A stretch of DNA of 40,096 bases from Desulfobacterales bacterium (GCA_050122795.1 JASFIG010000003.1:1-40096), one strand, 5' to 3'. Shown: positions 16,528 to 37,743, numbered from the stretch's first letter. A program made the numbers and translations. The notes: generated by a model not told the origin, from the letters alone.

Positions 16528-16576
16528 TTAACAGGTTCTTAACAGTTACGTAACTTTATGATAACAAAACTATAAT
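16528..16576 (+). promoter_or_regulatory. Putative Pho box array and -10 element upstream of phoB
   Basis: TTAACA 16528, TTAACA 16539, GTAACT 16550, ATAACA 16561 (exact 11-bp period), then TATAAT at 16571. Confidence 0.75.
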
Positions 16577-16654
16577 ATTTTCCTTAGCCGGAGACAAATA
16601 TTAGAATTACGTTAGCACTACCCATTAACCCCATACCAATTTTGGAGTTTAACA

Positions 16655-17347
16655 ATGGCAAAGGAAAAAATATTGGTCGTCGAAGATGAAGCGGATATCC
16701 TCGAGCTTGTGCGCTATAACCTGTCGCGCGAGGGGTATCACGTTACCGGAACCCTGTCGGGCGAAGACGCCCTTCGCAAAGTTCGATCAGATCCGTTTGA
16801 TTTGATTGTGCTGGATCTGATGCTGCCGGGTATGGATGGGCTGACGTTTACCAAAACGCTCAAAAATGATTCCAGGCTGCGCAGCATTCCGATTATCATG
16901 TTGACTGCCAAAGGCGAAGAGGCCGACATCGTCACCGGCCTTGAGCTGGGTGCCGATGACTATATGACCAAGCCCTTCAGCCCGAAAGTCATGGTCGCCC
17001 GGGTACGCGCTGCACTCCGTCGCCACAAGGAGGAGCCGCAGGATGAAATGGCGATTGTCAAAATTTACGATCTGGAAATCAATCCAGGCCGGCGCAGCGT
17101 AATGGCCAAAGGGGAGCCCGTTGATTTAACCTACACCGAATTTCAGGTTCTGCTGCTGCTGGCCAGACGTCCCGGCTGGGTGTTTACGCGCTCGCACATC
17201 GTGAACTCGATCCGGGGTAACGATTATCCGGTAACGGATCGCAGCGTTGATGTACAGATTGTCGGGCTGCGCAAAAAGCTCGGCGCCTATGGTCAGTATA
17301 TCGAAACCGTAAGGGGTGTCGGGTATCGGTTCAAGGAGACCCCATGA
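16655..17347 (+). CDS. phoB: OmpR-family response regulator PhoB/PhoP
   Basis: Receiver domain (VVEDE, LDLMLP, KPF) and winged helix (RSVDV, ETVRGVGY); located in a phosphate gene cluster. Confidence 0.85.
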   Translation: MAKEKILVVEDEADILELVRYNLSREGYHVTGTLSGEDALRKVRSDPFDLIVLDLMLPGMDGLTFTKTLKNDSRLRSIPIIMLTAKGEEADIVTGLELGADDYMTKPFSPKVMVARVRAALRRHKEEPQDEMAIVKIYDLEINPGRRSVMAKGEPVDLTYTEFQVLLLLARRPGWVFTRSHIVNSIRGNDYPVTDRSVDVQIVGLRKKLGAYGQYIETVRGVGYRFKETP

Positions 17348-19122
17348 AAAAGCGCAAACGCCTGCTGTGGCGGCTTTTTCCTTCCTATTTATTGATCACG
17401 CTGATCTCTTTGCTGGCTGTCAGCTGGTATGCCTCCGGTGCCATGCGCCAATTTTTTCTGGACCAGACCGCCACAGACCTGAAAGCCAGAGCAACCCTGC
17501 TTGAGAAACAGATATCAGGGCTGCTGTCACCATTGAATGCCGCTGCAATCGATTCCATCTGCAAAGAAGCCGGCCGGCTTTCGGCCACCCGCATTACAGT
17601 CATACTTCCGGATGGAACAGTCATTGGCGATTCGCGCGAAACCCCCCACCTGATGGATAATCATGCCAACCGCCCGGAAATTGCTGCGGCGCTGGACGGC
17701 CGGGCGGGCCAATCAATGCGTTTCAGCAACACCCTTATGCAACGTATGCTGTATGTCGCCGTACCGATCAAAGATCAGCAACGTGTTTTAGCCGTGCTGC
17801 GCACATCGTTGCCGGCAACCGCTGTGGAAACTGAAATCCGATCCATCCAGCTAAAAATTGCGCTCGGCGGATGCATTATCGCCCTGCTGGCGGCCGGCAT
17901 CAGCTGGGTGGTTTCCCGACGCATCAGTCAGCCGATCGAACAGATGAAAAAAAGTGCCGAACATTTCGCCAACGGCGATTTGAGCCATCGTCTGACACCG
18001 CCTCAAACAGAAGAGATGGGAGGTCTGGCGGATGCCATGAATCAGATGGCCGCCCAGCTGAAGGACCGCATTGAAACCATCGTCCGTCAGCGCAATCAGC
18101 TCCAAACGGTTCTGGCCAGTATGCTGGAAGGGGTGATTGCCATCGACACCGAAGAGCGGATTGTGAGCATTAACCAGACGGCTGCCCGGCTTTTTGAAAA
18201 CGAACCGGCTGGTTGCCAGGGAAAAAGCATTCAGGAGATCATCCGTTCCCCGGCATTGCAGCAGTTTATCCGTGCAGCGCTCAGCAACAAAAACCCGACT
18301 GAAGAAGACATCACGGTATTTCAAAAAGAAGAGCGCGTGATTGATGTCAAAGGCTCTCCTATTTTAGACGCAAATCGGCACCAAATCGGCACTCTGGTGG
18401 TATTTCACGATGTAACCCAGCTGCGGCGCCTGGAAAACATGCGACGTGATTTTGTAGCCAATGTCTCACATGAAATCAAAACGCCCCTGACCGCCATAAA
18501 AGGGTTTGTTGAAACTCTGCAACAGGGCAATGTTGAAAAACAACAGGAAAAAGAACGCTTCCTGGGTATCATTCAAAAACACGTGGATCGCCTGGATGCC
18601 ATTATCGAGGATTTGCTGGCACTTTCACGAATTGAGCAGGAAAACGAAAAGAAAGAAATTAAATTCGAGTCGGTAAAAATTGTGGATGTTTTTCAGGCTG
18701 CCATCCAATTGTGCATGCCAAAAGCCGAAAAACAAAGCATCCGTATCGATATTGACTGTGAAAAGGATATCACTGCCATTTTTGATCCCACCCTGATCGA
18801 GCAGGCGGTGGTTAATCTACTTGATAACGCTATTAAATTCAGTGAACCGCAAAGTACGATTCATGTCAAATTTCATCGCCATGAAGACGAGATGATTATC
18901 AGTGTTCAGGACCATGGTATCGGCATAGCCCAAAAGCATCTGCCGAGACTCTTTGAACGTTTCTATCGAGTCGACAAAGCGCGCAGCCGCAGCATGGGCG
19001 GAACCGGACTGGGGCTGGCTATCGTTAAACACATTGCCCAGGCCCACGGCGGACATGTTGCGGTTGAAAGCAAACTGGGAGAGGGCAGCCGCTTTAGCAT
19101 TCACCTGCCCCAAAAAAATTAG
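17344..19122 (+). CDS. phoR: Sensor histidine kinase PhoR (2 TM, HAMP, PAS, HisKA, HATPase)
   Basis: RRDFVANVSHEIKTPLT, NLLDNAIKF, FERFYRVDKARSR, GGTGLGLAIVKH; ATGA overlap with phoB. Confidence 0.88.
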   Translation: MKKRKRLLWRLFPSYLLITLISLLAVSWYASGAMRQFFLDQTATDLKARATLLEKQISGLLSPLNAAAIDSICKEAGRLSATRITVILPDGTVIGDSRETPHLMDNHANRPEIAAALDGRAGQSMRFSNTLMQRMLYVAVPIKDQQRVLAVLRTSLPATAVETEIRSIQLKIALGGCIIALLAAGISWVVSRRISQPIEQMKKSAEHFANGDLSHRLTPPQTEEMGGLADAMNQMAAQLKDRIETIVRQRNQLQTVLASMLEGVIAIDTEERIVSINQTAARLFENEPAGCQGKSIQEIIRSPALQQFIRAALSNKNPTEEDITVFQKEERVIDVKGSPILDANRHQIGTLVVFHDVTQLRRLENMRRDFVANVSHEIKTPLTAIKGFVETLQQGNVEKQQEKERFLGIIQKHVDRLDAIIEDLLALSRIEQENEKKEIKFESVKIVDVFQAAIQLCMPKAEKQSIRIDIDCEKDITAIFDPTLIEQAVVNLLDNAIKFSEPQSTIHVKFHRHEDEMIISVQDHGIGIAQKHLPRLFERFYRVDKARSRSMGGTGLGLAIVKHIAQAHGGHVAVESKLGEGSRFSIHLPQKN

Positions 19123-19398: not shown

Positions 19399-20625
19399 AT
19401 GGGATCTGAATACACCGTACTGATCATCGGCTATATCTTCGGATTCTATATGGCCTGGAATATCGGCGCCAATGATGTGGCCAATTCGATGGCATCGGCC
19501 GTCGGGGCCAAAGCCATTACCATCCGCCAGGCCATCTTCATCGCCGGTATTTTAAATATAGTCGGCGCTGTTTTTATCGGCTCGCACGTCACCCAAACCA
19601 TCCGCAAGGGGATCGTCTCAACGGACATCCTTACAGATCCCCATCTGGCCCTCATTGGCGCTCTATCCGCTCTGCTGGCGGCCGCCCTTTGGGTGTCGTT
19701 TGCCACCTGGAAATCACTGCCGGTATCCACAACCCATTCCATCGTAGGTGCGATGATCGGCTTTGGTATCATGGCCGGCGGATTTTCGGTGATCAACTGG
19801 GGCAAACTCGGCGCGGTCGTATTGAGCTGGGTGATTTCCCCGGTATTTGCCATGGTCATCGGTTTTTTGATGTTTAAAACCATCGTCAAATTCATTTTAT
19901 CCAGAGAAGACCCCTTCTCTCAGGCCCTCAAACTGGCCCCTTTTTTTATCAGCATCGCCCTTTTTGTGGTGATACTGTCCTTTCTTTTCAAAACGCCCCT
20001 GGGAAAAAGGCTGGCAATTGGCACGCCCCTGGCATTGCTGGTTGCAATCGTGCTTGCTCTCGCACTGGGCTTTGTGGCTGTCAAAATCTTGCGCAAATTC
20101 ATTAAAAAGACGAATCTAAGCGGGGAAGAAGAAGTCTTTCGTAAAATTCAGATCGGCACTTCCTGCTATGTGGCTTTGGCCCAGGGCGCCAACGACGTGG
20201 CCAATGCCATCGGGCCGCTGGCCGTGATCTACTTTCTGGTTAAAACCGGGAGCGTGGGAGCCAAGGTTCCGGTTCCTGTTTTTCTGCTTTTTTTCGGCGG
20301 CATCGGTATTGCGTGCGGCATCGGCATGGCCGGGCACCGCGTCATGGATACGATCGGCAGAAAAATCACCACCCTGACCAACACCCGCGGTTTTTCGGTG
20401 GATTTCGCGGCTGCCACAACGGTTATGGTGGCCTCCAAAATGGGGTTGCCGGTGTCAACCACCCACGCAGCTGTGGGCGGTGTCATGGGCGTTGGCCTGG
20501 CACGCGGTATTGATGCTGTTAATTTTAGAATTATTTTTGAGATTATCCTCTACTGGGTATTAACTGTGCCGGCTGCAGCCATTACCAGTATCGTTATTTT
20601 TAAAATTCTTCAGCTCTTTTTATAA
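19399..20625 (+). CDS. pit: PiT-family inorganic phosphate transporter
   Basis: Two GANDVAN signatures and two LPVSTTH motifs. Confidence 0.95.
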   Translation: MGSEYTVLIIGYIFGFYMAWNIGANDVANSMASAVGAKAITIRQAIFIAGILNIVGAVFIGSHVTQTIRKGIVSTDILTDPHLALIGALSALLAAALWVSFATWKSLPVSTTHSIVGAMIGFGIMAGGFSVINWGKLGAVVLSWVISPVFAMVIGFLMFKTIVKFILSREDPFSQALKLAPFFISIALFVVILSFLFKTPLGKRLAIGTPLALLVAIVLALALGFVAVKILRKFIKKTNLSGEEEVFRKIQIGTSCYVALAQGANDVANAIGPLAVIYFLVKTGSVGAKVPVPVFLLFFGGIGIACGIGMAGHRVMDTIGRKITTLTNTRGFSVDFAAATTVMVASKMGLPVSTTHAAVGGVMGVGLARGIDAVNFRIIFEIILYWVLTVPAAAITSIVIFKILQLFL

Positions 20626-20636
20626 AGGAGAACGTT

Positions 20637-21305
20637 ATGCGCATACCCTTTATTTCAATGTTCATCACCTCACCCTTCGATGGCCTGCAGGAGCATGCCG
20701 AAAAGGTCAAAGAATGCGCCTGGGTTTTTCAACGGGCCATTGAGTGTATCATCGAAGACCGATGTGAAGATTTCGAGCACTTCAGAAAAGACATTGATAA
20801 ACTCGAAAGCGAAGCCGATGCCATCAAGCGCCGCATTCGGGGCCATCTGCCCAAAGGGACTCTGTTGGCCGTGGACAAATTTGAGCTCTTCCGCTATCTG
20901 GGCGAGCAGGATAAGGTGCTGGATGTTGTCGAGGAAGGCCTTGACTGGCTGTCTTTCAGAGCCGCAGCCGGCATCCCCGAAGTGCTCGAAAAAGATTTCA
21001 TGCTTCTGGTGGCAGCGGTCATGGATCCAATTGAAGAGTTGAGCAAAATGGTGGCCGAAGCCCGTAAATATTTTTCAAATTTCTCTGAGGAGCAACGCAT
21101 TCGGGTTAAAGATATCATTCGCGATTTGCGTCACTACGAACACGAGGCCGACAAACTCGAAGATGCTGTCAAAGAGAAGATCTTTAATGCGATCGATGAT
21201 CCGGTGGCCGTATTTCATCTGATCCGCTTAACGGAAATCATCGGCTCCATCGCCGATCACGCCGAAAATGCCGGCGACATGATGCGAGCTATGGTTGCAA
21301 AATAA
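20637..21305 (+). CDS. DUF47 phosphate transport regulator (PhoU-like helical bundle)
   Basis: SPF..LQEH, ESEADAIKR, EHEAD, IADHAEN; directly follows pit. Confidence 0.9.
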   Translation: MRIPFISMFITSPFDGLQEHAEKVKECAWVFQRAIECIIEDRCEDFEHFRKDIDKLESEADAIKRRIRGHLPKGTLLAVDKFELFRYLGEQDKVLDVVEEGLDWLSFRAAAGIPEVLEKDFMLLVAAVMDPIEELSKMVAEARKYFSNFSEEQRIRVKDIIRDLRHYEHEADKLEDAVKEKIFNAIDDPVAVFHLIRLTEIIGSIADHAENAGDMMRAMVAK

Positions 21306-21506
21306 AGCCGGCTGAAAACAAACCGGCAATTGCTGCGGTCTTTTGCGCTTCAGCGAACAGTGCCTATTCTCAAACTGGCACGATATATCCGCCAACCGAT
21401 CACGTTTTTTTATTCTACGCTCATTTTCTTAAAAGCAATTTTGCGCCTAACTGAACCTTTCCACGCCTGTCTGAACCTTTCCATTGGTAATAAAATAAAT
21501 CCAATT

Positions 21507-21534
21507 TTAACCGTTCCTTAATAAAAAACTAATT
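21507..21534 (+). promoter_or_regulatory. Putative Pho box array upstream of the small ORF and phnH
   Basis: TTAACC 21507, TTAATA 21518, CTAATT 21529 (11-bp period). Confidence 0.5.
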
Positions 21535-21616
21535 TTTATCATTCATTTAAGTAGGGAAAATACGAATTTAGATGTGAAGAAATCACCACTTCTCGCTAAA
21601 GGTACACTGAGCAAAA

Positions 21617-21748
21617 ATGAATGCATTCCTTTTAATCTTGGGCGCGGCAATGCTTATTTCAGTTTTGATCATATGGCAATTTAAGACAATCAGAAAAAAG
21701 CATCCAAACGCGGAGATGCTGGTGCGCTTTTATCAAATGATCGTCTAA
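21617..21748 (+). CDS. Putative 43-aa single-pass membrane microprotein; missing from the ORF track
   Basis: MNAFLLILGAAMLISVLIIWQFKTIRKKHPNAEMLVRFYQMIV*: uninterrupted hydrophobic helix followed by a basic patch; RBS is weak. Confidence 0.5.
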   Translation: MNAFLLILGAAMLISVLIIWQFKTIRKKHPNAEMLVRFYQMIV

Positions 21749-21781: not shown

Positions 21782-22432
21782 TTGATATCTGAAATGGAAA
21801 TACCGACAACGCTATTGCCGGGTTTTTTGAATCCGGCCTTAGGGCCGCAACAAACATTTCGAGCCATTATAGAAGCAATGGCTCACCCGGGACGGCTTAT
21901 TAAAATCAAGACTAAGGTAAACAATATTGAAATGCTGAATACGGCATCTGCTGCTGTTTGCCTGACATTACTTGACGGAGAAACCCCCCTGTGGACCGAT
22001 TTGAGCTGGAATTGTACTGCCGTCAGCTGGTTTCAAGTTAATTGTGGATGCAGCGTTGTTACCGAGCCCTGCTTGGCACATTTTGCCCTGATAACCCACC
22101 CGGCAGAAATGCCGCCTCTTGATGATTTTAAGATTGGCCATGAGGAGCATCCGGAATCTGCAGCGACATTGATCATTCAGGTCCAGGGATTCGACGACGC
22201 CACCAGTAAAATCCTTAGCGTGCCTGGAACAAAATCAACCACTCAATTCGCACCCAAAGGAATACCGGCCAATTTCTGGGAACAATGGCAACTTCAAGCG
22301 GCTTTGTTTCCGCTGGGGGTGGATATCTTTTTCACTTGTGGTGACCTCCTGGCTGCCTTGCCCAGAACAACTCAGCTCAGCGATTCGACATCCGAGTCAA
22401 AAAAGACTCCAAAAAAAGCGGTTCTCACTTGA
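21782..22432 (+). CDS. phnH: C-P lyase system protein PhnH homolog (orphan in this window)
   Basis: QQTFRAIIEAMAHPG, LTLLDGETPLW, PESAATLIIQV, FPLGVD, ALPRTT; GGAGG RBS before TTG. Confidence 0.88.
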   Translation: MISEMEIPTTLLPGFLNPALGPQQTFRAIIEAMAHPGRLIKIKTKVNNIEMLNTASAAVCLTLLDGETPLWTDLSWNCTAVSWFQVNCGCSVVTEPCLAHFALITHPAEMPPLDDFKIGHEEHPESAATLIIQVQGFDDATSKILSVPGTKSTTQFAPKGIPANFWEQWQLQAALFPLGVDIFFTCGDLLAALPRTTQLSDSTSESKKTPKKAVLT

Positions 22433-22519: not shown

Positions 22520-22960
22520 TTATTGTAAAACTCTCTGAGCTAATGCCCGTCCGTAATCCTTGATGACCGACTGATATTCATCGTCAAATAACGGGCTCGA
22601 TATCAGATAATCAGCCGTGGATCGGTTGCAGGCCACGGCCATATTATATAATACGGACATGCGCAGCAGCGCCTTGACATCGACATCATGCGGATGAGAG
22701 GTCAATGGATCCCAGAAAAATATCAAAATATCAAGCCCGCCGTTGGCAATCATGGCGCCCAGCTGTTGGTCGCCGCCCAGCGGGCCGCTTTTTAGCCGGG
22801 TGATACTCAAATCACAGGCTTTAGATAAAATCTTGCCCGTTGTGCCGGTGGCGAATAATTCATGAGTGCATAGTTTGCGAGCGTTAAACTTCACCCACTC
22901 CAGCATATCTTCTTTTCTTTCATCATGGGCAACAAGTGCAATTTTCTTTTTAATCTTCAA
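22520..22960 (-). CDS. mgsA: Methylglyoxal synthase
   Basis: IALVAHD, ATGTTG, SGPLGGDQQ, PHDVDVKALLR. Confidence 0.97.
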   Translation of the reverse strand: MKIKKKIALVAHDERKEDMLEWVKFNARKLCTHELFATGTTGKILSKACDLSITRLKSGPLGGDQQLGAMIANGGLDILIFFWDPLTSHPHDVDVKALLRMSVLYNMAVACNRSTADYLISSPLFDDEYQSVIKDYGRALAQRVLQ

Positions 22961-23075
22961 TGGTTTCTCCTATGATTAAAGAAAAGCTGGTTGAGACGAT
23001 CGAAAACGGATTTGCTTAAACGAGCCTCTGTTGAGGGGGCAACCCCTTTTTGCGAACGGTCGATGACATAACGCC

Positions 23076-23507
23076 TCAGGTGGCATGTTGTTTTTTATCC
23101 ATGGGATGATCAATGGTCGAATCACCATGGATAATAAAATAAACCCCTTCGGCCACATTTTTGATATGATCGCCGATTCGTTCGCAGCAGCGGGCGGTGA
23201 AAATCAGGCTGGTATAGGTGTTGATATTGTCAGAATCAGCTTTCATGTATGACCGCAGCTGGATGAGCAAATCGGCATAAATCCGATTGATCGCATCATC
23301 CCGATGCCAGACCGCGATTGCCTTGGGGACATCTGATTCCAAATAGGCACTGATCACGTCTTTAAGCATCTGAGTCGCCAATTCAGCCATACGGATGATA
23401 AGCCGGACGGGTTTCTCCAGATAGACAGGGTCCAGATTCATTGCATTTTTAGCGATATTGGCGGACTTTTGAGCCTCAGATGGGATTTTGAAACCCTGTT
23501 TAGCCAA
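23076..23507 (-). pseudogene. N-terminally truncated phoU (about one PhoU repeat); pseudogene or half-size protein
   Basis: Has the C-terminal D..IN and CERIGDHIKNVAE motifs and only the tail (ANIAK) of the first repeat; 143 aa versus about 225 for the full copy at 37975. Confidence 0.6.
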
Positions 23508-24399
23508 AACGCCCGGTGATGTAATCCTCGGTTAGCTGGTGGCTCGGATTGGTAAAAATCTGTGCGGTGGGACCGACTTCAATGAGATCTCCGAGATGAA
23601 AATAAGCCGTGCGCTGAGACACGCGGGATGCCTGCTGCATGGAGTGGGTCACAATCACAATTGTATATTGTTCGCGCAGCTCGTCAATTAAATCTTCAAT
23701 AACGGCGGTGGCGATCGGATCCAGGGCCGAGCACGGTTCATCCATCAAAATGACCTCAGGGTTGACCGCAATCGTGCGTGCGATGCAAAGGCGCTGCTGC
23801 TGGCCACCGGACAGGCCCGTTCCGGGCTGGTCCAGCCAGTCTTTAACCTCGTCCCAGAGTCCGGCTTTGATCAACGACGTTTCAACGATTTCATCCAGTT
23901 CGGCTTTATTAGAGGACAGGCCATGAATTCTGGGCCCATAGGCAATATTTTCATAGATAGACTTTGGGAAGGGATTGGGTTTTTGAAAAACCATACCCAC
24001 CTGGGCCCGCAGCGGGACGACATCGATGTTTTTATCGTAGATGTTGATATCATCTAAGGTAATCTCGCCGATAATGCGGCAACCATCGATGGTGTCATTC
24101 ATTCGATTCAGGCAGCGAATAAAGGTTGATTTGCCACAGCCGGAAGGACCGATCATGGCAATGACCTCGTTGCGTCCGACATCCAGGGAAACATTTTTGA
24201 TGGCGTGTTTTTCGCCATACCAGACATTGACGTCTCGGCAGGTCATGCGCGGGTTGTCAACCGTTATTTCACCGACCGTATCGCGGTTCTCGCGGTCGAC
24301 CAATACCCGGCCTTCCGTGGCTTTGACCTTCTGTTCTGTGTTACCTTCTGGCATATTTCCTATGAAACCAGCCTCATCCATTGATTTGAGTGAAATCAT
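23500..24399 (-). CDS. pstB: Phosphate ABC transporter ATPase PstB
   Basis: [40 protein letters not shown]; start uncertain. Confidence 0.97.
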
Positions 24400-24492
24400 G
24401 ATATTAACAGATCTTGCGATAAGGAGTTTATATTACAGATTAACGCCCGGGTGTAAAGTATTTTAAGATAAACCCAGGCCCAATAATCAAAG

Positions 24493-24531
24493 CAAAAAGG
24501 TAGACCGGAAAAAATATTTTCCGGTCTACCT
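24493..24531 (-). terminator. Terminator-like hairpin between pstS and pstB
   Basis: Perfect 15-bp inverted repeat AGGTAGACCGGAAAA / TTTTCCGGTCTACCT, followed by a T run on the minus strand. Confidence 0.8.
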
Positions 24532-24543
24532 CGACAAACAAGT

Positions 24544-25599: not shown

Positions 25600-25681
25600 A
25601 GTCATTTCCTCCTTGAGTTTAAAAATTAGCACAAAAAAATTCAGTTGGTTAAAATTTTTTGGCTGCAACATACGCATTCCA

Positions 25682-25720: not shown

Positions 25721-25786
25721 ATCATGTGCTGCTCTTCAACGAACAGCCAGCCAGCGGCAAGTTGCCGGTAGCCCGAGCCGTTGTCA

Positions 25787-29018: not shown

Positions 29019-29046
29019 TATTAGCGCCGAATTAGCAGATGATTAA
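29019..29046 (-). promoter_or_regulatory. Putative Pho box array for the small Cys protein
   Basis: Minus strand TTAATC, CTAATT, CTAATA at an 11-bp period. Confidence 0.45.
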
Positions 29047-29155
29047 AATTCAGTGAAACCTCGAGTGCCCATCTTGAATATGAAAGAATCGTTAATTTCC
29101 TTTTTTTCCCATACCAGCGGTAATAGGACGATGGCTGTGATCCGAGTAATCGTTT

Positions 29156-29194
29156 TTAACATAGACTTAATACGATCTTTACGATGTCCTAATA
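29156..29194 (+). promoter_or_regulatory. Putative Pho box array upstream of the dikinase-like gene
   Basis: TTAACA 29156, TTAATA 29167, TTTACG 29178, CTAATA 29189. Confidence 0.65.
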
Positions 29195-29266
29195 AAATGA
29201 GCATAAACTAATGGGTTTAAGGCAAATATCATTGGCCTTTTTGAATCCGAAGCGATAGGAACGCAC

Positions 29267-31708
29267 GTGAAGTATCTGGTGGGTTTCGAAAATGATCGGG
29301 CATTAGACCCAAAAGTAGTGGGGCAAAAATTTCTTAATCTTGCAAGGGCAGCGCGTGCCGGATTCGCGGTGCCACAGGCTGTTGCCATTAGCACCCATGC
29401 GCATCAATACTTTATCAATCACGGCGCTTGGCCCGATGGCCTTTTGGATGAAGTTTCCAGGGCAGCCCGTCAATTAGATTTGGAAAGGGGGCTTTCCATT
29501 CGTTCATCGGCAACGCTCGAAGATCTGGAAAAGCAGAGCTTTGCCGGGCAGTACCGCACTTTTTTGCAGGTGATCGATGAGGATGAACTCAAAAATAAAA
29601 TCGAAGAATGCTGGCAGGGTGCCCGCTCGCCCGCAGTCCTGAGCTATTTAAAGTCAAACCACGTTAGCGGGGTTGCCGGGCAAATACCACTGATGGGGGT
29701 TATTATCCAAAAAATGGTCAATGCAGTTGCCGCCGGCATCGCCTTTGGTCGCAATCCCATGAATCCGGCCCGCGATGAAATTGTCATCGAAGCGGTCAAA
29801 GGTCTGGCAGAAAAACTTGTCAGTGGAAACTTAACTCCCTACCGCGCAATCATTGATGGACAAGACAAGCTCCAGGTGACCCCCCCCTCACGTGATCTTT
29901 CCCGACTGACCGTCGGCGAAGAGACGCTGATGACCCTCTTGCCATGGCTTGATATCGCCGATCTGGTGCGTGCGCTGCAGTCAAATGGTAATGGTGTTCC
30001 CCTGGATATCGAGTGGGCTATCGATGAAAGCAAAAAAATCTGGCTGCTGCAATCACGGGCCATCACCACACTGGATCAACAAAAATGGCAGATCCCTGCG
30101 GGCGTCTGGACGCGTAAAATCGCCAATGACCTCTGGGCTGACCGCCTCACCCCATTTCTGGCAAATGAAATGGAGCAAAACGCGCCGCAGTTTGATCTCT
30201 CGCGCATTTTAAAAATTCTGGGCATTGAGGTTACCCGGCCGACGCTGACCGTCATCAATGGCTACCTGTATGTCAACTGTCGCTCTATCGCAGACGTGCT
30301 GGCCTATATACCGCCCAACCTTCAGCTGCCGGATTTGCAGTCTCTTTTTCCATCCGATTTTGCCTCGGACGCCAAATCACCACCTACTATTTTAAAGCAA
30401 ATTACAGTGGCCATTCGCAGCCTGGGCCTCATATTTCTGGAACCCGGGATTTTGCCTTTCTTTTGCTTTGCGATCAGCCGGCGTAAGCAAAACAAAATCA
30501 ACAAGCAACTCGATCACATACAGCAGCAGGGCGTTGGTTCGGCCAAAAAGGCATTTCAAGCGCTGCAGCTATCATTGTCAGCTTTGCGCCAGGTGCAAAT
30601 CAGCAATCAGTGGCCGTATTTTTTTGCAAATTATCTGATTTGGTTGCTGCGCTGGACGATGGTGGATGTCTTTGGATATTCGCATGCACATTTTCTCGAT
30701 GTTCTGAGCCAAAACGGTCAGAACACCACTATCGAAATTGAAAAACAGTTTCAACTGCTGGCCGATCAAATTATCGCCGACGAAGATATGTATGCTTATT
30801 TCTTAGCGCAATCCGCGCCAAAATTGTGGCCCGGATTATCAAAACAATTTCGTAACGACCTCCACACATTTTTAACCCGGTACGGCTGCCGATCCCGCCA
30901 TCGAACGCTATATGTCAAGCGCTGGGCAGAGGCGCCTGAAGAAGTTCTGGGGATTCTTCAAGCGCTGGTTCGTCGAAAAAACGTTCCCACAAAAGCCACA
31001 GAGCATCAGGCAACTCAAAAGCGAAACACAAAATTGCGACTTGCAGCCGATCAACACCTACAGCTGAACCACGGGCATTCATTTTTGCTGAGATGGCTGA
31101 TCAAAATGTCCCGCAAATTTTTAGACCTGCGCGAGGAACAGCGCTTTTTACTGGATAAAGTTCTGTTTCAGATCAGATTGTCTTTGCTGGCGCTGGGCCG
31201 TCATTGCGGGCTGAATGAAAAAATCCTTTTTTTAAAAAAATCTGAAATTCAACAGATTGCAGAGGCCACCCTGACCCCAAACGATATTAAAAAAGTGGCG
31301 GCTGAGCGGCATCACCGGTTTCTGGAACCTTTTGATGTCAGCACATTCTATGTCGATGGTCGGCCGCTAAATGAATTTCAAATGCAGGGGAAGGTCTTGC
31401 GGGGTATCGGCACCAGTCCGGGCGCTGCTTTCGGGCGCGCCCGGATTGTACAGGACCCCACCCGGGTCCACCTGAATTCGGACGAAATCCTGATTGCTGA
31501 AAATACAGATCCGGGGTGGACGCCCATCTTAAGCATGGTAAACGGAATGGTCATCGAGGAAGGCGGATTACTCAACCACTGCTCTATTGTAGCCCGCGAA
31601 CTGGGTATTCCGGCGGTTGTGGGTGTGCGCCAGGCAACTCAGATTATACCCGATGGGGCTAAGATATCCATCGATGGCGGGATGGGGTTGGTGCGCATTG
31701 AAGAGTAG
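29267..31708 (+). CDS. PEP-synthase-type ATP-grasp + central domain + C-terminal phospho-His swivel enzyme (small-molecule dikinase architecture), substrate unknown
   Basis: IRSSATLED..SFAGQY, IQKMV, DIEWA, LLQSRAIT; TDPGWTP and GGLLNHCSIVARELGIPAVVG. Confidence 0.85.
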   Translation: MKYLVGFENDRALDPKVVGQKFLNLARAARAGFAVPQAVAISTHAHQYFINHGAWPDGLLDEVSRAARQLDLERGLSIRSSATLEDLEKQSFAGQYRTFLQVIDEDELKNKIEECWQGARSPAVLSYLKSNHVSGVAGQIPLMGVIIQKMVNAVAAGIAFGRNPMNPARDEIVIEAVKGLAEKLVSGNLTPYRAIIDGQDKLQVTPPSRDLSRLTVGEETLMTLLPWLDIADLVRALQSNGNGVPLDIEWAIDESKKIWLLQSRAITTLDQQKWQIPAGVWTRKIANDLWADRLTPFLANEMEQNAPQFDLSRILKILGIEVTRPTLTVINGYLYVNCRSIADVLAYIPPNLQLPDLQSLFPSDFASDAKSPPTILKQITVAIRSLGLIFLEPGILPFFCFAISRRKQNKINKQLDHIQQQGVGSAKKAFQALQLSLSALRQVQISNQWPYFFANYLIWLLRWTMVDVFGYSHAHFLDVLSQNGQNTTIEIEKQFQLLADQIIADEDMYAYFLAQSAPKLWPGLSKQFRNDLHTFLTRYGCRSRHRTLYVKRWAEAPEEVLGILQALVRRKNVPTKATEHQATQKRNTKLRLAADQHLQLNHGHSFLLRWLIKMSRKFLDLREEQRFLLDKVLFQIRLSLLALGRHCGLNEKILFLKKSEIQQIAEATLTPNDIKKVAAERHHRFLEPFDVSTFYVDGRPLNEFQMQGKVLRGIGTSPGAAFGRARIVQDPTRVHLNSDEILIAENTDPGWTPILSMVNGMVIEEGGLLNHCSIVARELGIPAVVGVRQATQIIPDGAKISIDGGMGLVRIEE

Positions 31709-31953: not shown

Positions 31954-32985
31954 TTACGAAAATTTTAGATTTGCCCACGCGGTGCGGGCGAGCCCTTCAA
32001 CATCTTCCCAATTGCCGCTTTCGATCCACTCGGCAACCATACGGGCCACATCGGGATAGCGTATCGATGTGACAGACGGTTTCTCCAAGAATTGTTCAAC
32101 CGCATTCTGATCCAATTTTTTCATCACCGTGCCCAGATTCAATTCTGAAATCACATGCGCGTTGGAAGCCTGCTCCATTTGTCCGCGTAATGGCTTAATC
32201 AGAATCTTTTTTCCCAGGAACAACGCCTCGCTGAGCAGCTCGAATCCTGCGTTGCTGATCACACCGTTGCAACTTCTCAAATCATCTAAAAAACCGTTGC
32301 GCGAAAATGGTCGCAAGTGCAGATTGTCGTCATCTTTTGCCGAAGACACGTTGCAGTAGACAACAAACCGGTAGGCTGCAATCGGTTTGAGCAAAGATTC
32401 GATATCCGAGAGGGTTTCAAAGGGCAGATAAACCAGTATCTTGTCCGGCTGTATTTGTGAATCGTTTTGCAGGTGCGCCGGAATGATCGGGGGCAGTATG
32501 GGCTTATTGAAATGATGCCAGTGCAGGCCGATTGCATAATCAGTGGGCGCAAAGTTTCTAACCACCCACATTGAAAATGGATCTGCCTTTTTGACCGGCA
32601 CACGATGCAGAAAGGCATACTGGTGACCGACACCGATGGAAGGAAGCTTGTTACGACTGGCAATCCGAGCAGCAACCGGTTCAAAATCGGTCACCACCAG
32701 ATCAAACCCTGAAGCATTGTAGCTATGAATATCGCGATAAAACTGAATTAAATTTAACTGCAGCGCTGTGCCGACGATCCGGACTTTTCCGCGCCGGCTG
32801 ATAAATGTGAGCCCCCGAAAGGTATCATAGGGCTCAAATGTCTGCATATCCCAAAGATGGAACGGATCGCGTCCGGTCAAAATGACCCGGACCTCATGAC
32901 CCAAGTCCTTGAGATGGTGAATGACTTCCCTGGAGCGACTGATGTGGCCGTTGCCCGTGGCCTGTACGCCGTATAAAATTTTCAT
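31954..32985 (-). CDS. MJ1255/VC2487-family glycosyltransferase
   Basis: MKILYGVQATGNGHISR, TDFEP, GHQY, LVYLPFE, NAGFEL.SEAL, GQMEQ.SNA. Confidence 0.88.
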   Translation of the reverse strand: MKILYGVQATGNGHISRSREVIHHLKDLGHEVRVILTGRDPFHLWDMQTFEPYDTFRGLTFISRRGKVRIVGTALQLNLIQFYRDIHSYNASGFDLVVTDFEPVAARIASRNKLPSIGVGHQYAFLHRVPVKKADPFSMWVVRNFAPTDYAIGLHWHHFNKPILPPIIPAHLQNDSQIQPDKILVYLPFETLSDIESLLKPIAAYRFVVYCNVSSAKDDDNLHLRPFSRNGFLDDLRSCNGVISNAGFELLSEALFLGKKILIKPLRGQMEQASNAHVISELNLGTVMKKLDQNAVEQFLEKPSVTSIRYPDVARMVAEWIESGNWEDVEGLARTAWANLKFS

Positions 32986-33006: not shown

Positions 33007-33534
33007 TCAGCCCAAAATCATAATCCCTGCAAATGCGCACAAAATTCCGATCACCAGACCAGCTATAATATCGGTTGGATAGTGAACGCCAAGATAGATT
33101 CGAGAGACACCGACAAGCATCGCCCAGATGGATACCGGTACCGTTAAGATCGGAAAAAAGTGCGCGATTAAGGTGGCAATGACAAAGGCAGCGGCGGTAT
33201 GACCGGAAGGAAAACTGAACCGATCACTGGGGGATATCCGCTGATGCACGCCGGATAACACCTCACAGGGACGATGCCGTTTGATTTTTTGCTTTAAAAT
33301 TTTATACAGCGGAAGCTCAAGAGCAAAGGCCAGCAAGGCGCACAGAAAAAAAGCCCCGGCAATCCGAGGCTCGATAAAATAGAAGATCAGCGGTATGGCC
33401 GGGTAGTAATAGCCATTACCGCTATGGGAAATCCAGGGCATGACAGCCGAGATCAGTCTTTTGCCGTTCAGGCTAAAGATGGTGTTTAAAAAAACCCGAT
33501 CCCAGTGTGTGACACTATCGACGAAGGTTCTCAT
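33007..33534 (-). CDS. PAP2-family membrane phosphatase
   Basis: K....RHRP, SFPSGH and SRIYLGVHYPTD motifs. Confidence 0.93.
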   Translation of the reverse strand: MRTFVDSVTHWDRVFLNTIFSLNGKRLISAVMPWISHSGNGYYYPAIPLIFYFIEPRIAGAFFLCALLAFALELPLYKILKQKIKRHRPCEVLSGVHQRISPSDRFSFPSGHTAAAFVIATLIAHFFPILTVPVSIWAMLVGVSRIYLGVHYPTDIIAGLVIGILCAFAGIMILG

Positions 33535-33567
33535 AGCCTAATATTGCTAAACATACTAACGATGGGG

Positions 33568-33606
33568 GGTTAGGCTAATATTAGGCTTTAGTTTGTTTTC
33601 TGCTAA
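33568..33606 (-). promoter_or_regulatory. Putative Pho box array upstream of the PAP2-GT pair
   Basis: Minus strand TTAGCA, CAAACT, CTAATA, CTAACC at an 11-bp period. Confidence 0.5.
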
Positions 33607-33609
33607 AAA

Positions 33610-34803
33610 TTACAAACCACTGTTGATCACCAGATCGGTTATCGGTCCGCGAGACTTCTCGCCCTTTAAAACCAGATGAGAATAAATTTTGCTGCCCTTG
33701 AATTTTTTAACGACCCAGTTGAGGCCGTTGTTCTCCTGATTTAAATACGGGTTGTCCACCTGATGAATATCGCCCAGACAGATGCATTTGACACCGTCAC
33801 TCATTCTGGACAGTAGCGCGCGGCATTCGAACCTGGACATATTTTGCATCTCGTCGATAATGACCACCGTATTTTCAATGTTCATGCCCCGAATAAAGGC
33901 CAGGGGCAGGATCTCAAAATGCTTGGGATTGAACCGGGGCGGATAGAAATCAACATCACTGAATATCTTGTTGGCCGGGCGCAAGTGGTGCAACTTGATC
34001 ATCAAATCTGAAATATAGCGTGTATAGGGTTCCATTTTTTCTTCGACTTTTCCCGGCAGGTACCCCAGTTTCTGGCCGATTTCAATCATGGGTTTGATGA
34101 CGAAAATTTTTTCAAAGCGCTTTTGTTGCAGCACCAGATAAAGTGCTGCCGCCAGCGCTAAAAAGCTTTTTCCATAGCCGGCGTCACTTTGGATGGAGAG
34201 AATGTGGATATCGTGATTAATCATTAAGTCCAGCGCCAGATTCTGAAAAACCGTGCGTGGTGTGACATTCCAGATTTTGTGCTGATAGTCGATCAGCTTT
34301 TCACCCCGGGCACCCATGAAAACCGGTTTTCCCTGCTCGTTCCACCTGAATGCATTGGGTACGAGCCCGTCTGCAGAAGTGACAAAACCGGTAAAGTATT
34401 CAGCTTCGGATTTAAACGGCACCGATTCTTTGTAGATCTCGCTTTTAACGCCCTGCAATCCGGCCTGCAGCTGAAAGATTTTGTCATTGGTCACCAGAAT
34501 GGGCTTTTTCAATCCGCTGTTCAAAATCTCTTTTAAAATGAAATTATCCACCAGGCCGGCGAAAGCACCGGCAACACCGCTGGCATTTAAGATTTTATAA
34601 TGGTCGGGGTGGTCATTTAGATACTTCACAACCCGGGCAACAATATGTCCCCGTTTAGAGCTTTTTTTAAATTTATTGAGTTCGAGTAAAACATGATAGG
34701 GAATGTAAATTTGGTTTTCATTGCCGTTGCGCAGCTTCGAGAGCGCATCCGGATCTTCAAGCAATACATTCGTATCAATCACATAATGCTTTTGAATGGC
34801 CAT
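33610..34803 (-). CDS. PIN-PhoH family protein
   Basis: YVIDTNVLL and LVTND (PIN); AGYGKS, LGYLPG, IRGMNI, IIDEMQN, GDIHQVD (PhoH). Confidence 0.92.
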   Translation of the reverse strand: MAIQKHYVIDTNVLLEDPDALSKLRNGNENQIYIPYHVLLELNKFKKSSKRGHIVARVVKYLNDHPDHYKILNASGVAGAFAGLVDNFILKEILNSGLKKPILVTNDKIFQLQAGLQGVKSEIYKESVPFKSEAEYFTGFVTSADGLVPNAFRWNEQGKPVFMGARGEKLIDYQHKIWNVTPRTVFQNLALDLMINHDIHILSIQSDAGYGKSFLALAAALYLVLQQKRFEKIFVIKPMIEIGQKLGYLPGKVEEKMEPYTRYISDLMIKLHHLRPANKIFSDVDFYPPRFNPKHFEILPLAFIRGMNIENTVVIIDEMQNMSRFECRALLSRMSDGVKCICLGDIHQVDNPYLNQENNGLNWVVKKFKGSKIYSHLVLKGEKSRGPITDLVINSGL

Positions 34804-35083
34804 TTTTAAGCCTTTCTATATTAGAATATTTGAAAATAAAGCGGGAGCTGAAGATGAATTTGGGGCGTCTACACAACAACTGCATAAAACTGTTGTCAGT
34901 AGAAGCAGGTGAAACAAAGATGGGGACCATACGGATTTGACTTATAATGTTCACTGACCTCGAGTGCAACACATCCATAGGGTTCGCGTTTACCAAAATG
35001 ACGTATACCGGCTTCCGGATTATCAAGAGGGACTAAAAGTTACACCGCAAATCTTAGGTCTTACGATTTAACTAACTTTGTGA

Positions 35084-35122
35084 TGTTAGAAGATCATGAA
35101 TCTGGCGTTAGAATTAAGTAAT
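35084..35122 (-). promoter_or_regulatory. Putative Pho box array upstream of PIN-PhoH
   Basis: Minus strand ATTACT, CTAACG, TTCATG, CTAACA at an 11-bp period. Confidence 0.4.
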
Positions 35123-35195
35123 GATTGAGACGGGTGCAAGCGCGAAGGTTTTAAAAGGCGGATTTGTCATTAAACCGGCTGATCATGTTGTAAAA

Positions 35196-37649
35196 TCAAA
35201 TGGCTTTGGAAAGTGATCTTTCCAAATCATCAGAAGTGGTCGCATACATTTTCCAGGAATGGTGAAAGGCACCGTCAAAAAAGCGCTCTTCCATATATTG
35301 CCGTGCGGCCCGGCTCATCTCCCGGGCGGCGGTCGGATTGGCAATTAAAAAGTGCAAGGCATCCACAATGCTGTCGGCATCATCGCCTTTAATAGCGAGT
35401 CCTGTCTTGCCCGCAACTATATTCTCCTGTGGCCCCCCTCTATCTGTTACAATGACCGGTAAGCCGGAAGCCTGGGCTTCCAGTACCGCCCGTCCGAATG
35501 AGTCCGTAGTACTCGGGTAGATAAAGACATCACAGGAAGCGTAAACAGTGGGCAGATCATCTCCATTTAAATAGCCGGTGAAAAAGCAGGATGTACCCCT
35601 GAGCGCGGCTTGCATTTCAGCCAGATAAGGGCCGTCGCCGACAACAATTAGCTGCACATCTTTGCGTTGTTGATAAAGCATTTGATAGGCCCTGGACAGA
35701 ATGTGCAGGTTTTTCTCCTTGGAAACTCGACCCACGTAGAGCAATTTCAGACCCTCATCAACCGGAAAGCGCTTTTTTAAAAAGCCATTATTTTTGCTGG
35801 GATGAAATTTTTCAATGTCCACCCCGTGGGGCAAAAGATGTAGTTTTTCTGCAGCGATCCCGTTTCCCACCAACTCCTGATAGGCACTTTTCGAAGGCAC
35901 GTAGATCCGGCCCATTTGACTGTAAAACCATTTTGTGTATTTCCAGGCCAGCTCTTCCATCATAACATCACCGGTTAGAAATTGTGCATAGAGCGGCAAG
36001 GATGTCTGGTAGGTAGCGTTTATCGGAAGCTTTAACAACCGCGCAACGAGCAATGCCGCCAACCCAATCGGCCCCGGTGTAGCAGCATGTATCCGCGTAA
36101 AATTTTCCCTGTAGCAAAATTCAAGCATTTCCATCAATGGCGGATAAAACAATTTTGATTCCGGGTAGTCGGAAAAATCATATGCGCCGATAGGCGTAAA
36201 ATTCTGGATACCACTTCGGTCGGTACGATCTTCGCCATCGCAGGTCACTACGGTCAACCGCTGATTACATTTGATGGCTGATGCAACCTGTTGCTGCAGG
36301 GTGTCGGCCACATCATTGATACCGTAAAATGTATCTGTAAATACAGCAACATTTTCGCTAATGCCGACCTGGGCTTTCGGCATCCTTTGCCGCTGAAATC
36401 GTTTTTCAAGCCTGACTTGAAATTGCCGGTGCCTGTTATAATGGGCAAAAGCCACAAAATAGGGCGCCAGCAATGTGTAGAAACCGCCTGCGGATCCGAC
36501 CGTATGAAAGATGTTAAACAGGTTGGCACCTGAAAAATGATCGAAAAGATGATTGGCAAACTGCAACAGAACCCGATTGGATATTTCTTTAACAAACACA
36601 AACCATTGTTGTTCGATCTCCTGGCAATGGGCGCCGGCATTTACGGGGATCAAAAATAGTTGCGGATTTTCAGCATGAAGTTTGCTGGTTTCACGGCGCA
36701 AAAGTTCCATCATGGTATCCGGTGCACTGCCCGCAATTTTTTTCTGCCGCCGGTACTGGCGCAGGAAGTGCAGCTTCTTAAAAAAACCGGAATGCGCTTC
36801 TTGATCGCTTCGCAGGCAACGGTCAATAAATTTTAAGACACTGTCTGTAGGCGCATAATCTCCCAGACCGAGTTTATTACGATAAAATTGGTAGGCGATG
36901 CTGTATAAATTGCGCGCAAAGTTTAGGGGCGATGAGGGCTGACTGACAACGCTGGTTTGACCGTTGTCGATTCCTATCAAAAAAGTACCTATCGAGTCGG
37001 CCTGCGGGACTTCGGTAAAGGTCCGTGCGATATTGAGCGAGCTATGGTCATCTGAACCGCCGACCAGGTTTTTTTTCCAGGCCTCGGGCAGCGTTGGGAA
37101 AAGCCCATGCTTGTCTGCCAATCGGTATATTGCCTCTCGATTTAAATCAGATAAGGTCCGTTTAAGGCATTCATTGGATTCAGGATTGAAATCACCATTT
37201 AACTCAAAATTTTTAAACAGGAGCAGACATTTTTCAAAATGCTCAATCGTTAAGCGGTCATTGACCGCATACATTGGATGTGCCAGGGCGTGGCAGATGC
37301 GTTGTCGTTGAAGATAGTCAAGCAGCTCATATAGATTTTTGCGCAATTTTTGAATGTCTTCATGTTGACTTTCCGTAATCTGGTATACAAGCACATGCAA
37401 CTTGCATTGATCTTCGGGAAAATAAGATGTTACTTCTTCACTAAGAAATGTTCCCGGCAGATGCGCGATTTCCAAGACACCATCAATGCGATTATGATCG
37501 GTTATCGTAACCAGTGTCATTCCTCGATGGCGAGCGATGCGATAAAGATTTAGCGGTTCTGTGAAGCTTTCCGGACAACCGATTTTTTGCAAAAACCACT
37601 GCGACGGTCTCTGGGAGTACTTTGAATGGACATGCAAATCAGCGCGCAT
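35196..37649 (-). CDS. PHP-domain phosphoesterase fused to a GT4 glycosyltransferase
   Basis: DLHVHS, ITDHN, LAHP, GGSDDH (PHP); YVGRVSKEKN, VGDGP, DSFGRAVLEAQASGLPVI (GT4); AGGAG RBS. Confidence 0.88.
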   Translation of the reverse strand: MRADLHVHSKYSQRPSQWFLQKIGCPESFTEPLNLYRIARHRGMTLVTITDHNRIDGVLEIAHLPGTFLSEEVTSYFPEDQCKLHVLVYQITESQHEDIQKLRKNLYELLDYLQRQRICHALAHPMYAVNDRLTIEHFEKCLLLFKNFELNGDFNPESNECLKRTLSDLNREAIYRLADKHGLFPTLPEAWKKNLVGGSDDHSSLNIARTFTEVPQADSIGTFLIGIDNGQTSVVSQPSSPLNFARNLYSIAYQFYRNKLGLGDYAPTDSVLKFIDRCLRSDQEAHSGFFKKLHFLRQYRRQKKIAGSAPDTMMELLRRETSKLHAENPQLFLIPVNAGAHCQEIEQQWFVFVKEISNRVLLQFANHLFDHFSGANLFNIFHTVGSAGGFYTLLAPYFVAFAHYNRHRQFQVRLEKRFQRQRMPKAQVGISENVAVFTDTFYGINDVADTLQQQVASAIKCNQRLTVVTCDGEDRTDRSGIQNFTPIGAYDFSDYPESKLFYPPLMEMLEFCYRENFTRIHAATPGPIGLAALLVARLLKLPINATYQTSLPLYAQFLTGDVMMEELAWKYTKWFYSQMGRIYVPSKSAYQELVGNGIAAEKLHLLPHGVDIEKFHPSKNNGFLKKRFPVDEGLKLLYVGRVSKEKNLHILSRAYQMLYQQRKDVQLIVVGDGPYLAEMQAALRGTSCFFTGYLNGDDLPTVYASCDVFIYPSTTDSFGRAVLEAQASGLPVIVTDRGGPQENIVAGKTGLAIKGDDADSIVDALHFLIANPTAAREMSRAARQYMEERFFDGAFHHSWKMYATTSDDLERSLSKAI

Positions 37650-37704
37650 AGAGCTTTCTCCTCCTGTGATGGGGCTGAAATGTTTTTTAATGAAAACAAA
37701 ATGT

Positions 37705-37743
37705 TGTTAAGATAGTATTAAAATTGATTTAAAATTTGGTTAA
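37705..37743 (-). promoter_or_regulatory. Putative Pho box array upstream of PHP-GT4
   Basis: Minus strand TTAACC, TTAAAT, TTAATA, TTAACA at an exact 11-bp period. Confidence 0.7.

Follow-up and report, generated by a model that had tools for sequence, protein, structure and literature searches.

According to the accounts cited here, PhoP of Bacillus subtilis binds four TT(A/T/C)ACA-like repeats with an 11-bp periodicity (PMC11870197, PMC3036859, both after Eder et al. 1999). In Synechocystis, the target of PhoB consists of three tandem repeats that share a TTAA core, and mutating any TTAA reduced or abolished binding in electrophoretic mobility shift assays (EMSA; PMC11126600); the cyanobacterial repeat consists of 8 bp plus a 3-bp linker, that is, an 11-bp period (PMC1906773, Su et al.). 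Escherichia coli PhoB binds 11-bp direct-repeat CTGTCAT units arranged head to tail (PMC4415409). For Desulfovibrio vulgaris, PhoB (DVU1083) was found by DNA affinity purification on chip (DAP-chip) and EMSA to bind (c/t)GT(n)AC direct repeats upstream of phoB and pstSCA (PMC3333781, PMC6456213). Here we describe a 40,096-nt stretch from a Desulfobacterales bacterium (GCA_050122795.1, JASFIG010000003.1:1-40096), hereafter the window, which is an entire contig (C3) of a 4.70-Mb assembly with 529 contigs, a GC content of 0.50 and 85% completeness. Between 16.6 and 38.7 kb it contains a densely packed cluster of phosphate genes, recognized with Pfam and NCBIfam. An earlier note, made from the sequence alone, had read 11-bp-periodic TTAACA-like hexamers before nine of its genes as the operator sites of a Pho regulon. 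Our analysis indicates that these arrays are very probably Pho boxes, that is, tandem sites for the PhoB/PhoP-type regulator encoded at 16655-17347 in the same cluster.

Hexamer arrays resembling [TC]TAA[CT]A, with an 11-bp period and oriented with the downstream gene, are present at all the places named in the note. All nine were readable in register, and eight are individually beyond chance. They precede the phoB-like regulator gene (phoB), a membrane small open reading frame (sORF43) followed by phnH, pstS, pstC, the gene for a 71-amino acid (aa) cysteine miniprotein (Cys71), a gene for a dikinase-like enzyme, a PAP2 phosphatase gene with a glycosyltransferase (GT) gene of the MJ1255/VC2487 family, a PIN-PhoH gene and a fusion gene with a GT4 domain. 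Four hexamers each were recognized at phoB, pstC, the dikinase-like gene and the GT4 fusion, three or four at pstS, Cys71, PAP2 and sORF43-phnH, and just two good boxes, 22 nt apart, at PIN-PhoH. The array of the dikinase-like gene has the highest four-box score in the genome. For Cys71, the presence of an array was borne out but its proposed start was not: the conserved register begins one unit upstream, at 29057, and supersedes a register from 29046, which had a leave-one-out score of -2.6.

A count matrix of 32 boxes has T at position 2 in 28 boxes, A at position 3 in 28, A at position 4 in 29 and A at position 6 in 19, with C or T at position 5 in 31. In the derived position weight matrix (PWM), positions 2-5 hold 1.15, 1.10, 1.22 and 0.88 bits, and the spacers are near zero. 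The poorest box is regularly an inner one: in phoB, pstC, dikinase and PIN-PhoH it is box 3, whereas pstS and PAP2 have their weakest hexamer at box 2. Orthologues keep this inner-box degeneracy.

To score candidate sites, we used a four-box consensus score with a maximum of 24 and a threshold of at least 20, and as AT-matched background 2853 real upstream intergenic regions (GC 0.41), 29 of them in the window and 2824 outside. The threshold was reached at 18 of ~9.4 million genome positions, 11 of which lie on this contig, representing 0.85% of the genome. At the level of upstream regions, 12 of 2853 reached it, eight of them among the 29 of the window (Fisher p = 1.9e-14); one of these eight is a plus-strand reading before phoU2, a PhoU gene divergent from the GT4 fusion. 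The sORF43 region, which itself scores 20, lies outside the set of 2853. Equal frequency before unrelated genes would, according to the earlier note, have spoken against a regulon; we found scores of at least 20 in 4 of 2824 non-window regions. The period is specific, with 8 of 29 window regions reaching 20 at 11 bp and 0 of 29 at 8, 9, 10, 12, 13 or 14 bp. In 5000 dinucleotide-preserving shuffles per region, the scores of eight sites were reached 0-9 times and that of PIN-PhoH 163 times. The note's caution that weaker arrays in AT-rich regions could be chance thus applies to PIN-PhoH only and not to the other eight.

The periodicity was also recovered without scoring four boxes together. The window has 236 sites of [TC]TAA[CT], and same-strand pairs of them occur 11, 8 and 7 times at spacings of 11, 22 and 33 nt, compared with ~0.55 expected by scaling from the remaining genome; other distances from 4 to 45 yield 0-4. 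A prior-free screen of all 4-mers and 5-mers for an excess of self-pairs at 11/22/33 placed TTAA and TAAC at the top of the 4-mers and TAACA at the top of the 5-mers, the latter with 6 self-pairs versus 0.09 expected. When each site was scored with a leave-one-out PWM, the number of the 2824 non-window regions with an equal or better score was 1 each for pstC and dikinase, 2 each for phoB, GT4 and pstS, 9 for sORF43/phnH and 40 for PAP2.

Conservation follows the boxes. The cluster is syntenic in seven related Desulfobacterales metagenome-assembled genomes (MAGs), in which the dikinase orthologues are 73-81% identical, and the arrays before dikinase, Cys71, pstC, PAP2, the GT4 fusion and pstS are retained; identities of boxes, spacers and upstream flanks are listed in Table 1. 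For phoB orthologues, an array scoring at least 21 of 24 lies upstream in 19 of 30 loci (from 41 genomes), with different spacers. By kinship, the genus itself accounts for 14 of these (out of 16 loci) and more distant genomes, including other families, for 5 (out of 14). In four loci lacking a phoB array (L028, L032, L034 and L035), the upstream sequence reads as the end of a coding sequence, by eye taken for the 3' end of phoU; if that reading is right, no promoter is expected at this place. Upstream of the phoB array in the window, between it and an arsR-like gene, are further repeats: three direct repeats spaced 9 bp (16361-16393), which make up a 20-nt inverted repeat with 16445-16464 (95% complementary). 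Related GC-rich 'CAACCGG'-type strings occur before phoB in relatives.

Most of the arrays also stand at a set distance from a -10-like hexamer. The Pho box of E. coli replaces the -35 element and lies ~10 bp upstream of the -10 element, and in Bacillus the PhoP core region is placed at -60 to -20; boxes in the place of the -35 element are the classic Pho-promoter layout in both organisms. Here, eight of 12 arrays have a TAnnnT hexamer that starts 9-10 nt past the end of box 4, namely those of phoB, pstS, pstC, dikinase and PAP2 (hexamers in Table 1), of two zinc-ribbon loci on other contigs and of an sORF on contig C259, all three described below. The phoB promoter has, in addition, a perfect TATAAT 5 nt ahead of its TATTTT. 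In orthologous promoters the -10-like hexamer is kept at the same distance. If it is the -10 element, the boxes would span about -60 to -22, with boxes 3 and 4 in the -35 place. From box 1 to the start codon there are 72-127 nt in eight of the nine window arrays, and 319 nt at PIN-PhoH. For pstS this distance is counted from a corrected start. The array at first seemed too near its gene (43 nt), an artefact of an over-long open reading frame (ORF) call: the predicted -10 element falls downstream of the ORF caller's ATG (region 25605-25677, minus strand), a signal peptide is predicted from M23/M25, and tblastn matches in relatives begin at residues 14-22. The true start is probably M23 or M25, at 25611 or 25605, 22-24 codons inside the longest ORF, which places box 1 at 109-115 nt. 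The single RNA run found, a wetland metatranscriptome (X1), contains 0.07 of the sampled words, and its contig pieces with 100% identity fall in pstS, pstA and pstC, with the promoters uncovered; this RNA is kept as contigs, from which starts, strand and level are unreadable, and it speaks neither for nor against the promoters.

A genome-wide PWM scan, proposed in the earlier note, led to further phosphorus-related genes: the best non-window regions belong to phosphonate ATP-binding cassette (ABC) transporter loci next to alkaline phosphatase genes. Two paralogous loci on contigs C391 and C269, not used to build the motif, occupy ranks 5, 6, 11 and 12 of 2853 with the full PWM. One array lies 182 nt before a 98-aa zinc-ribbon ORF and another directly before the phosphonate ABC ATPase gene, and each locus is divergent from an Alk_phosphatase gene; the ATPase gene of C391 is followed by those of a Phosphonate-bd binding protein and a permease fragment. 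Weaker minus-strand arrays precede the alkaline phosphatase genes themselves by ~300 nt (L001:3715-4030 and L002:896-1220). In the leader of these genes (folding z = -2.6, no Rfam match), a strong GC hairpin and then a U run lie immediately ahead of the ribosome-binding site, and the leader may be an attenuator. A score-22 array on C259 (L003), for which no gene of matching orientation was apparent, initially looked like a false positive, until a 62-aa membrane sORF was recognized 93 nt downstream. Within 5400-5660 of the same locus, a second, divergent array lies 83-94 nt before a saccharopine-dehydrogenase-like gene with a weak carboxynorspermidine synthase match.

With a four-box IUPAC pattern allowing up to 3 mismatches, the genome gave 7 matches (5 in the window, the others on C259 and C391). 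In five same-genus genomes, the same pattern matched 22 times, versus 7 for a reversed-pattern control. These matches group at the same loci as in the window: in one of the genomes (G012), 8 of 9 matches fall between 10.5 and 73.6 kb of a single contig, at positions corresponding to the GT4, dikinase, pstC, pstS, phoB and zinc-ribbon/phn promoters. Four matches precede genes of other kinds, at distances of 330 nt (encoding a PHP-domain protein), 386 nt (Porin_4), 112 nt (TPR) and 53 nt (PEMT-like); we consider these candidates.

The likely binder is encoded in the cluster itself. The best NCBIfam family of the regulator is TIGR02154 (PhoB), and its DNA-binding domain has E. coli PhoB as one of the best named matches in the PDB. 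The genome yielded no closer paralogue, its next OmpR-family proteins being 41-42% identical. The partner kinase, with Cache-like, HAMP and PAS domains, passes the NF046044 equivalog model for PnpS (428.3 bits, cut-off 400), which we take to be the pneumococcal Pho kinase. Three features point to this regulator as by far the likeliest binder: autoregulation, phosphate genes as targets and a family that commonly binds 11-bp tandem repeats. We infer its identity as the binder, an activating effect and phosphate as the signal from sequence.

Several points weigh against reading the arrays as Pho boxes. At 236.4 bits, the regulator stays below the PhoB equivalog cut-off of 296.2 bits and is PhoB-like rather than a certified PhoB equivalog. 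Consensus and PWM were derived from the same window, a circularity lessened, not removed, by the leave-one-out scores, the k-mer screen and the other genomes. Background regions rest on crude longest-ORF gene calls. The compared genomes are related to one another, which keeps the conservation counts from being independent trials, and with 85% completeness in 529 contigs the regulon list is incomplete. Clean TAnnnT hexamers are missing from the sORF43, Cys71, PIN-PhoH and GT4 arrays, although Cys71 and PIN-PhoH have TAnnnA. With its palindromic TTAA core, the GT4 array can likewise be read on the plus strand, which leaves orientation ambiguous in the divergent GT4/phoU2 region; the plus-strand reading there also scores 20, reached in 1 of 5000 shuffles. 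The PIN-PhoH array is weak, being equalled by 46 of the 2824 non-window regions in addition to its 163 shuffles, and the alkaline phosphatase-side array is weaker too (3-box PWM ~15).

Given a regulator below the equivalog cut-off, the arrays could instead be bound by a different OmpR/PhoB-family protein responding to another signal. Other OmpR-family regulators are present in the genome, at the 41-42% identity mentioned, and 11-bp tandem repeats are common to the whole family. However, the strongest conserved array stands before the phoB-phoR operon itself, almost every target is a phosphate gene (pst, phoU, phn or an alkaline phosphatase-adjacent locus) and the partner kinase passes the PnpS model, which makes this alternative unlikely. 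Phased A/T-rich DNA acting by curvature or as UP-like elements, with no sequence-specific activator, would suit the AT-rich regions (GC 0.34-0.41) and a phase near the helical repeat. Such DNA would not, however, concentrate information in hexamer positions 2-5 with near-empty spacers, orient boxes with genes or keep C/T at position 5; the pattern's scarcity in other AT-rich upstream regions and the conservation of boxes but not spacers also argue against it, and we judge it very unlikely. Recent duplication of one promoter cassette could explain why the promoters are alike, given that the arrays of the clearly paralogous loci C269 and C391, outside the window, are nearly identical. The window arrays, however, share hexamers only, with unrelated spacers and flanks, and each is conserved with its own gene across genomes, so that we give duplication hardly any credence.

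We attach equally little weight to chance matches in AT-rich intergenic DNA as an account of the set, which is refuted by the shuffles of the other eight sites, the Fisher test, the 11/22/33 pairs and the k-mer screen. At PIN-PhoH alone, chance is still live. There, the shuffle and background counts, the distance to the start codon and the loss of the units in L041 favor it, whereas their retention in L040 speaks against it. The array claimed in the note for this gene is therefore present as units, but, with two good boxes, not significant by itself. The PIN-PhoH gene is missing at this place in L039 and L044, and in L039 the first three PIN-PhoH units pass straight into the PAP2 array without a break in phase, the two being joined precisely at a box boundary. 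This continuity makes the site more credible than its score and hints at recombination between Pho-box units as the way in which PIN-PhoH was gained or lost; overall, the chances that the site is genuine are about even. The region of gain or loss corresponds to 33535-35195 in the window, L039:6620-6822 and L044:6950-7040. A leader of ~250 nt before PIN-PhoH (34804-35080, minus strand) is conserved at the DNA level in L040 and L041 and overlaps an 83-aa ORF with a TTG start, 37-40% identical in translation and with no family match.

The Pho-box reading, by contrast with these alternatives, accommodates arrays before phoB-phoR and both pst promoters, their near-confinement to the phosphate cluster, their retention in relatives and the fixed distance to a -10-like hexamer. 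In the mechanism we propose, the unit would be a [TC]TAA[CT]A hexamer plus a 5-nt spacer, four per promoter, on one face of the DNA and oriented with the gene. Under phosphate scarcity, the PhoR/PnpS-type kinase would phosphorylate the regulator, two head-to-tail dimers of which would occupy the four boxes and recruit RNA polymerase to promoters without a -35 element. The phoB-phoR-pit-phoU_div operon would be autoregulated through its own array.

Table 1. Genes and hexamer arrays of the phosphate cluster, in window coordinates. Shuffles: number of 5000 shuffles reaching the score of the site. Identity: mean pairwise identity of boxes/spacers/flank (22 nt upstream) in the window and 2-7 further MAGs per promoter.
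Feature	Position	Strand	Description	Basis	Shuffles	Identity
phoB array	16528-16566	+	TTAACA/TTAACA/GTAACT/ATAACA; then TATAAT 16571-16576 and TATTTT 16576-16581		0	
phoB-like gene	16655-17347	+	OmpR-family response regulator	Pfam, NCBIfam		
phoR	17344-19122	+	PhoR/PnpS-type histidine kinase	Pfam, NCBIfam		
pit	19399-20625	+	PHO4/Pit transporter, downstream of kinase	Pfam		
phoU_div	20637-21305	+	PhoU_div, after PHO4/Pit	Pfam		
sORF43-phnH array	21496-21545	+	TAAATC/TTAACC/TTAATA/CTAATT/CATTCA; register 21496/21507		9	
sORF43	21617-21748	+	43-aa membrane sORF			
phnH	21782-22432	+	orphan	passes NCBIfam equivalog cut-off		
pst operon	22520-28469	-	pstC-pstA-pstS-pstB-phoU-mgsA	Pfam, NCBIfam; synteny in relatives		
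mgsA	22520-22960	-	methylglyoxal synthase, last gene of pst operon			
pstS array	25682-25720	-	TTAATG/CAAACA/CTAATA/CTAATT, inside pst operon; -10-like TATGTT 25672-25667		0	0.72/0.62/0.33
pstC array	28550-28588	-	TTAACA/CTAACA/ATCATT/CTAACA; -10-like TAGACT 28540-28535		1	0.95/0.70/0.67
Cys71	28736-28951	-	71-aa miniprotein, CxxC...CxxC, family-less	alignment of 8 orthologues		
Cys71 array	29019-29057	-	TTCACT/TTAATC/CTAATT/CTAATA		3	0.95/0.67/0.42
dikinase array	29156-29194	+	TTAACA/TTAATA/TTTACG/CTAATA; -10-like TAAACT 29204-29209		0	0.86/0.59/0.34
dikinase-like gene	29267-31708	+	phosphoenolpyruvate (PEP)-utilising enzyme, 813 aa	Pfam		
MJ1255-family GT	31954-32985	-	MJ1255/VC2487-family glycosyltransferase	Pfam, NCBIfam		
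PAP2	33007-33534	-	PAP2 phosphatase	Pfam, NCBIfam		
PAP2 + GT array	33568-33606	-	TTAGCA/CAAACT/CTAATA/CTAACC; -10-like TAGTAT 33558-33553		4	0.94/0.74/0.41
PIN-PhoH	33610-34803	-	PhoH2-like	Pfam, NCBIfam		
PIN-PhoH array	35084-35122	-	ATTACT/CTAACG/TTCATG/CTAACA, weak; 319 nt upstream of gene		163	
GT4 fusion	35196-37649	-	817 aa, C-terminal GT4 glycosyltransferase	Pfam		
GT4 array	37705-37743	-	TTAACC/TTAAAT/TTAATA/TTAACA		0	0.97/0.70/0.42
phoU2	37801-38652	+	full-length PhoU with two PhoU domains, divergent from GT4 fusion	Pfam, NCBIfam		

We infer a regulon that would comprise, in the window, phoB-phoR-pit-phoU_div, the pst operon (including another promoter, inside it, ahead of pstS), sORF43-phnH, Cys71, the dikinase-like enzyme, PAP2 with the MJ1255-family GT and the GT4 fusion and, on other contigs, the two zinc-ribbon-ORF/phosphonate-ABC loci divergent from alkaline phosphatase genes. 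The divergent phoU2 perhaps also belongs to it. Since the palindromic core reads both ways and the array lies at the same distance from each start, a single array may serve the GT4 fusion and phoU2 together; in the intergenic region (37650-37800), it is located exactly 94 nt from both start codons. The assignment of genes of unclear function to phosphate starvation in the earlier note stands, as far as sequence can tell, for the dikinase-like gene, Cys71, PAP2-GT, the GT4 fusion and phnH. Downstream of phoU2, the window carries an archaeal-type AAA gene of the ATPase_2 family (38719-39861, minus strand), with a paralogue at L004:3123-4244 (minus strand). The C161 copy is preceded by an AT-rich region that reaches 20 of 24, probably by chance. 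At the gathering threshold, Rfam gave no matches in the window and three other contigs.

Several putative members are unusual. The dikinase-like protein combines an N-terminal PPDK_N ATP-binding domain with a C-terminal mobile His domain, and Pfam detected no PEP/pyruvate barrel in it. Its NCBIfam matches to PEP-synthase-like proteins, PigC and rifamycin phosphotransferase are all below the cut-offs, and its best PDB matches are of like kinds, the top ones being presumably rifampin phosphotransferases. Cys71, judged by the invariance of C6, C9, C21 and C24 in 8 orthologues, is a real, conserved gene. It has no Pfam or NCBIfam family, its best Atlas neighbor (0.86) is family-less, and it shows no similarity to the 98-aa zinc-ribbon ORF of C269. 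We call phnH an orphan under a Pho box because a search for PhnJ (PF06007) gave no match in this genome, nor in the 15 further same-genus genomes covered, of which three are 97% complete. Methylglyoxal synthase, encoded by the last gene of the pst operon, releases phosphate from dihydroxyacetone phosphate and is inhibited by phosphate. A tblastn search with mgsA from the window gave no match at the expected place in L038 and L040, so its placement is not shown to be conserved.

PAP2 and the two GTs under Pho boxes suggest lipid remodelling, in which dephosphorylation to diacylglycerol would be followed by glycosylation, by analogy with Agt-type glycosyltransferases. Lipids free of phosphorus are known to be of importance in anoxic sediments; a D. 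alaskensis mutant in an Agt-type glycosyltransferase loses fitness under phosphate limitation (PMC5193443). The top NCBIfam matches of the GT4 fusion are lipid glycosyltransferases, below the cut-offs. Its N terminus had been labelled PHP in the earlier note, a label we did not retain except as a lead: the Pfam match over the N-terminal 460 aa has E = 0.22, PHP_C occurs in 14% of the members of its Atlas clusters and the N-terminal 450 aa are faintly PHP-like.

Taken further, these features allow a reading that we regard as possible though rather doubtful. The regulon might include an RPH/PigC-like three-domain phosphotransferase, Cys71, the 98-aa ORF before phnCDE and an orphan PhnH without C-P lyase, together with a lipid set of PAP2, the MJ1255-family GT and a faintly PHP-like phosphoesterase fused to GT4, through which glycolipids might replace phospholipids by enzymes unrelated to PlcP/Agt. 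We know of no Pho regulon with such a phosphotransferase, zinc-ribbon miniprotein, orphan PhnH and lipid set as members. If this tentative extension were true, the phosphorus economy or its regulation would gain new players in the dikinase-like enzyme and the miniproteins.

What the window provides with more assurance is a phosphate-starvation regulon readable from the sequence of an uncultured Desulfobacterales genus. It is a useful annotation and a solid regulon reconstruction, moderately interesting and unsurprising. It also yields testable candidates for phosphorus sparing in anoxic sediments, namely the dikinase-like enzyme, Cys71, PAP2 with the GTs, the orphan PhnH and mgsA. In addition, it indicates that Pho boxes can differ inside a single phylum, being here of the Bacillus/cyanobacterial TTAACA/TTAA type and not the GTnAC type of Desulfovibrio, which matters when regulons are transferred between sulfate reducers.

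Among the described systems, D. vulgaris is of the same phylum and shares an OmpR-family PhoB and direct repeats before phoB and pst genes. Its (c/t)GT(n)AC box, however, has two repeats, and no such pair is present in any of the 29 upstream regions of the window. E. coli has 11-bp direct-repeat units as well, and the predicted promoter geometry would agree with replacement of the -35 element, but the core differs: as the earlier note had observed, the boxes are unlike CTGTCAT, and no TGTCA-N6-TGTCA pair occurs in the same 29 regions. In our literature search, which left subscription journals and RegPrecise-type databases outside, we found no description of a TTAACA-type box for Desulfobacterales. 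The note had called the box lineage-specific, which is apt relative to Desulfovibrio and E. coli but goes too far otherwise, since TTAACA fits the Bacillus PhoP consensus and the TTAA core is cyanobacterial. With the SphR/PhoB box of Synechocystis, the arrays share tandem direct repeats, the 11-bp period and the TTAA core; they differ from it in the usual number of repeats, four rather than three, and in the bases flanking the core. They resemble the B. subtilis PhoP box in having four hexamers with an 11-bp period and a sequence, TTAACA, that its consensus includes, and the PnpS/PhoR type of the kinase is a further likeness to Bacillus and Firmicutes. Unlike in B. subtilis, position 5 is C/T, with TTAATA and CTAATA frequent, position 1 is T/C, and the host belongs to the Desulfobacterales. 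The mechanism is a textbook one, and the box is a further case of the Bacillus/cyanobacterial type in an uncultured lineage.

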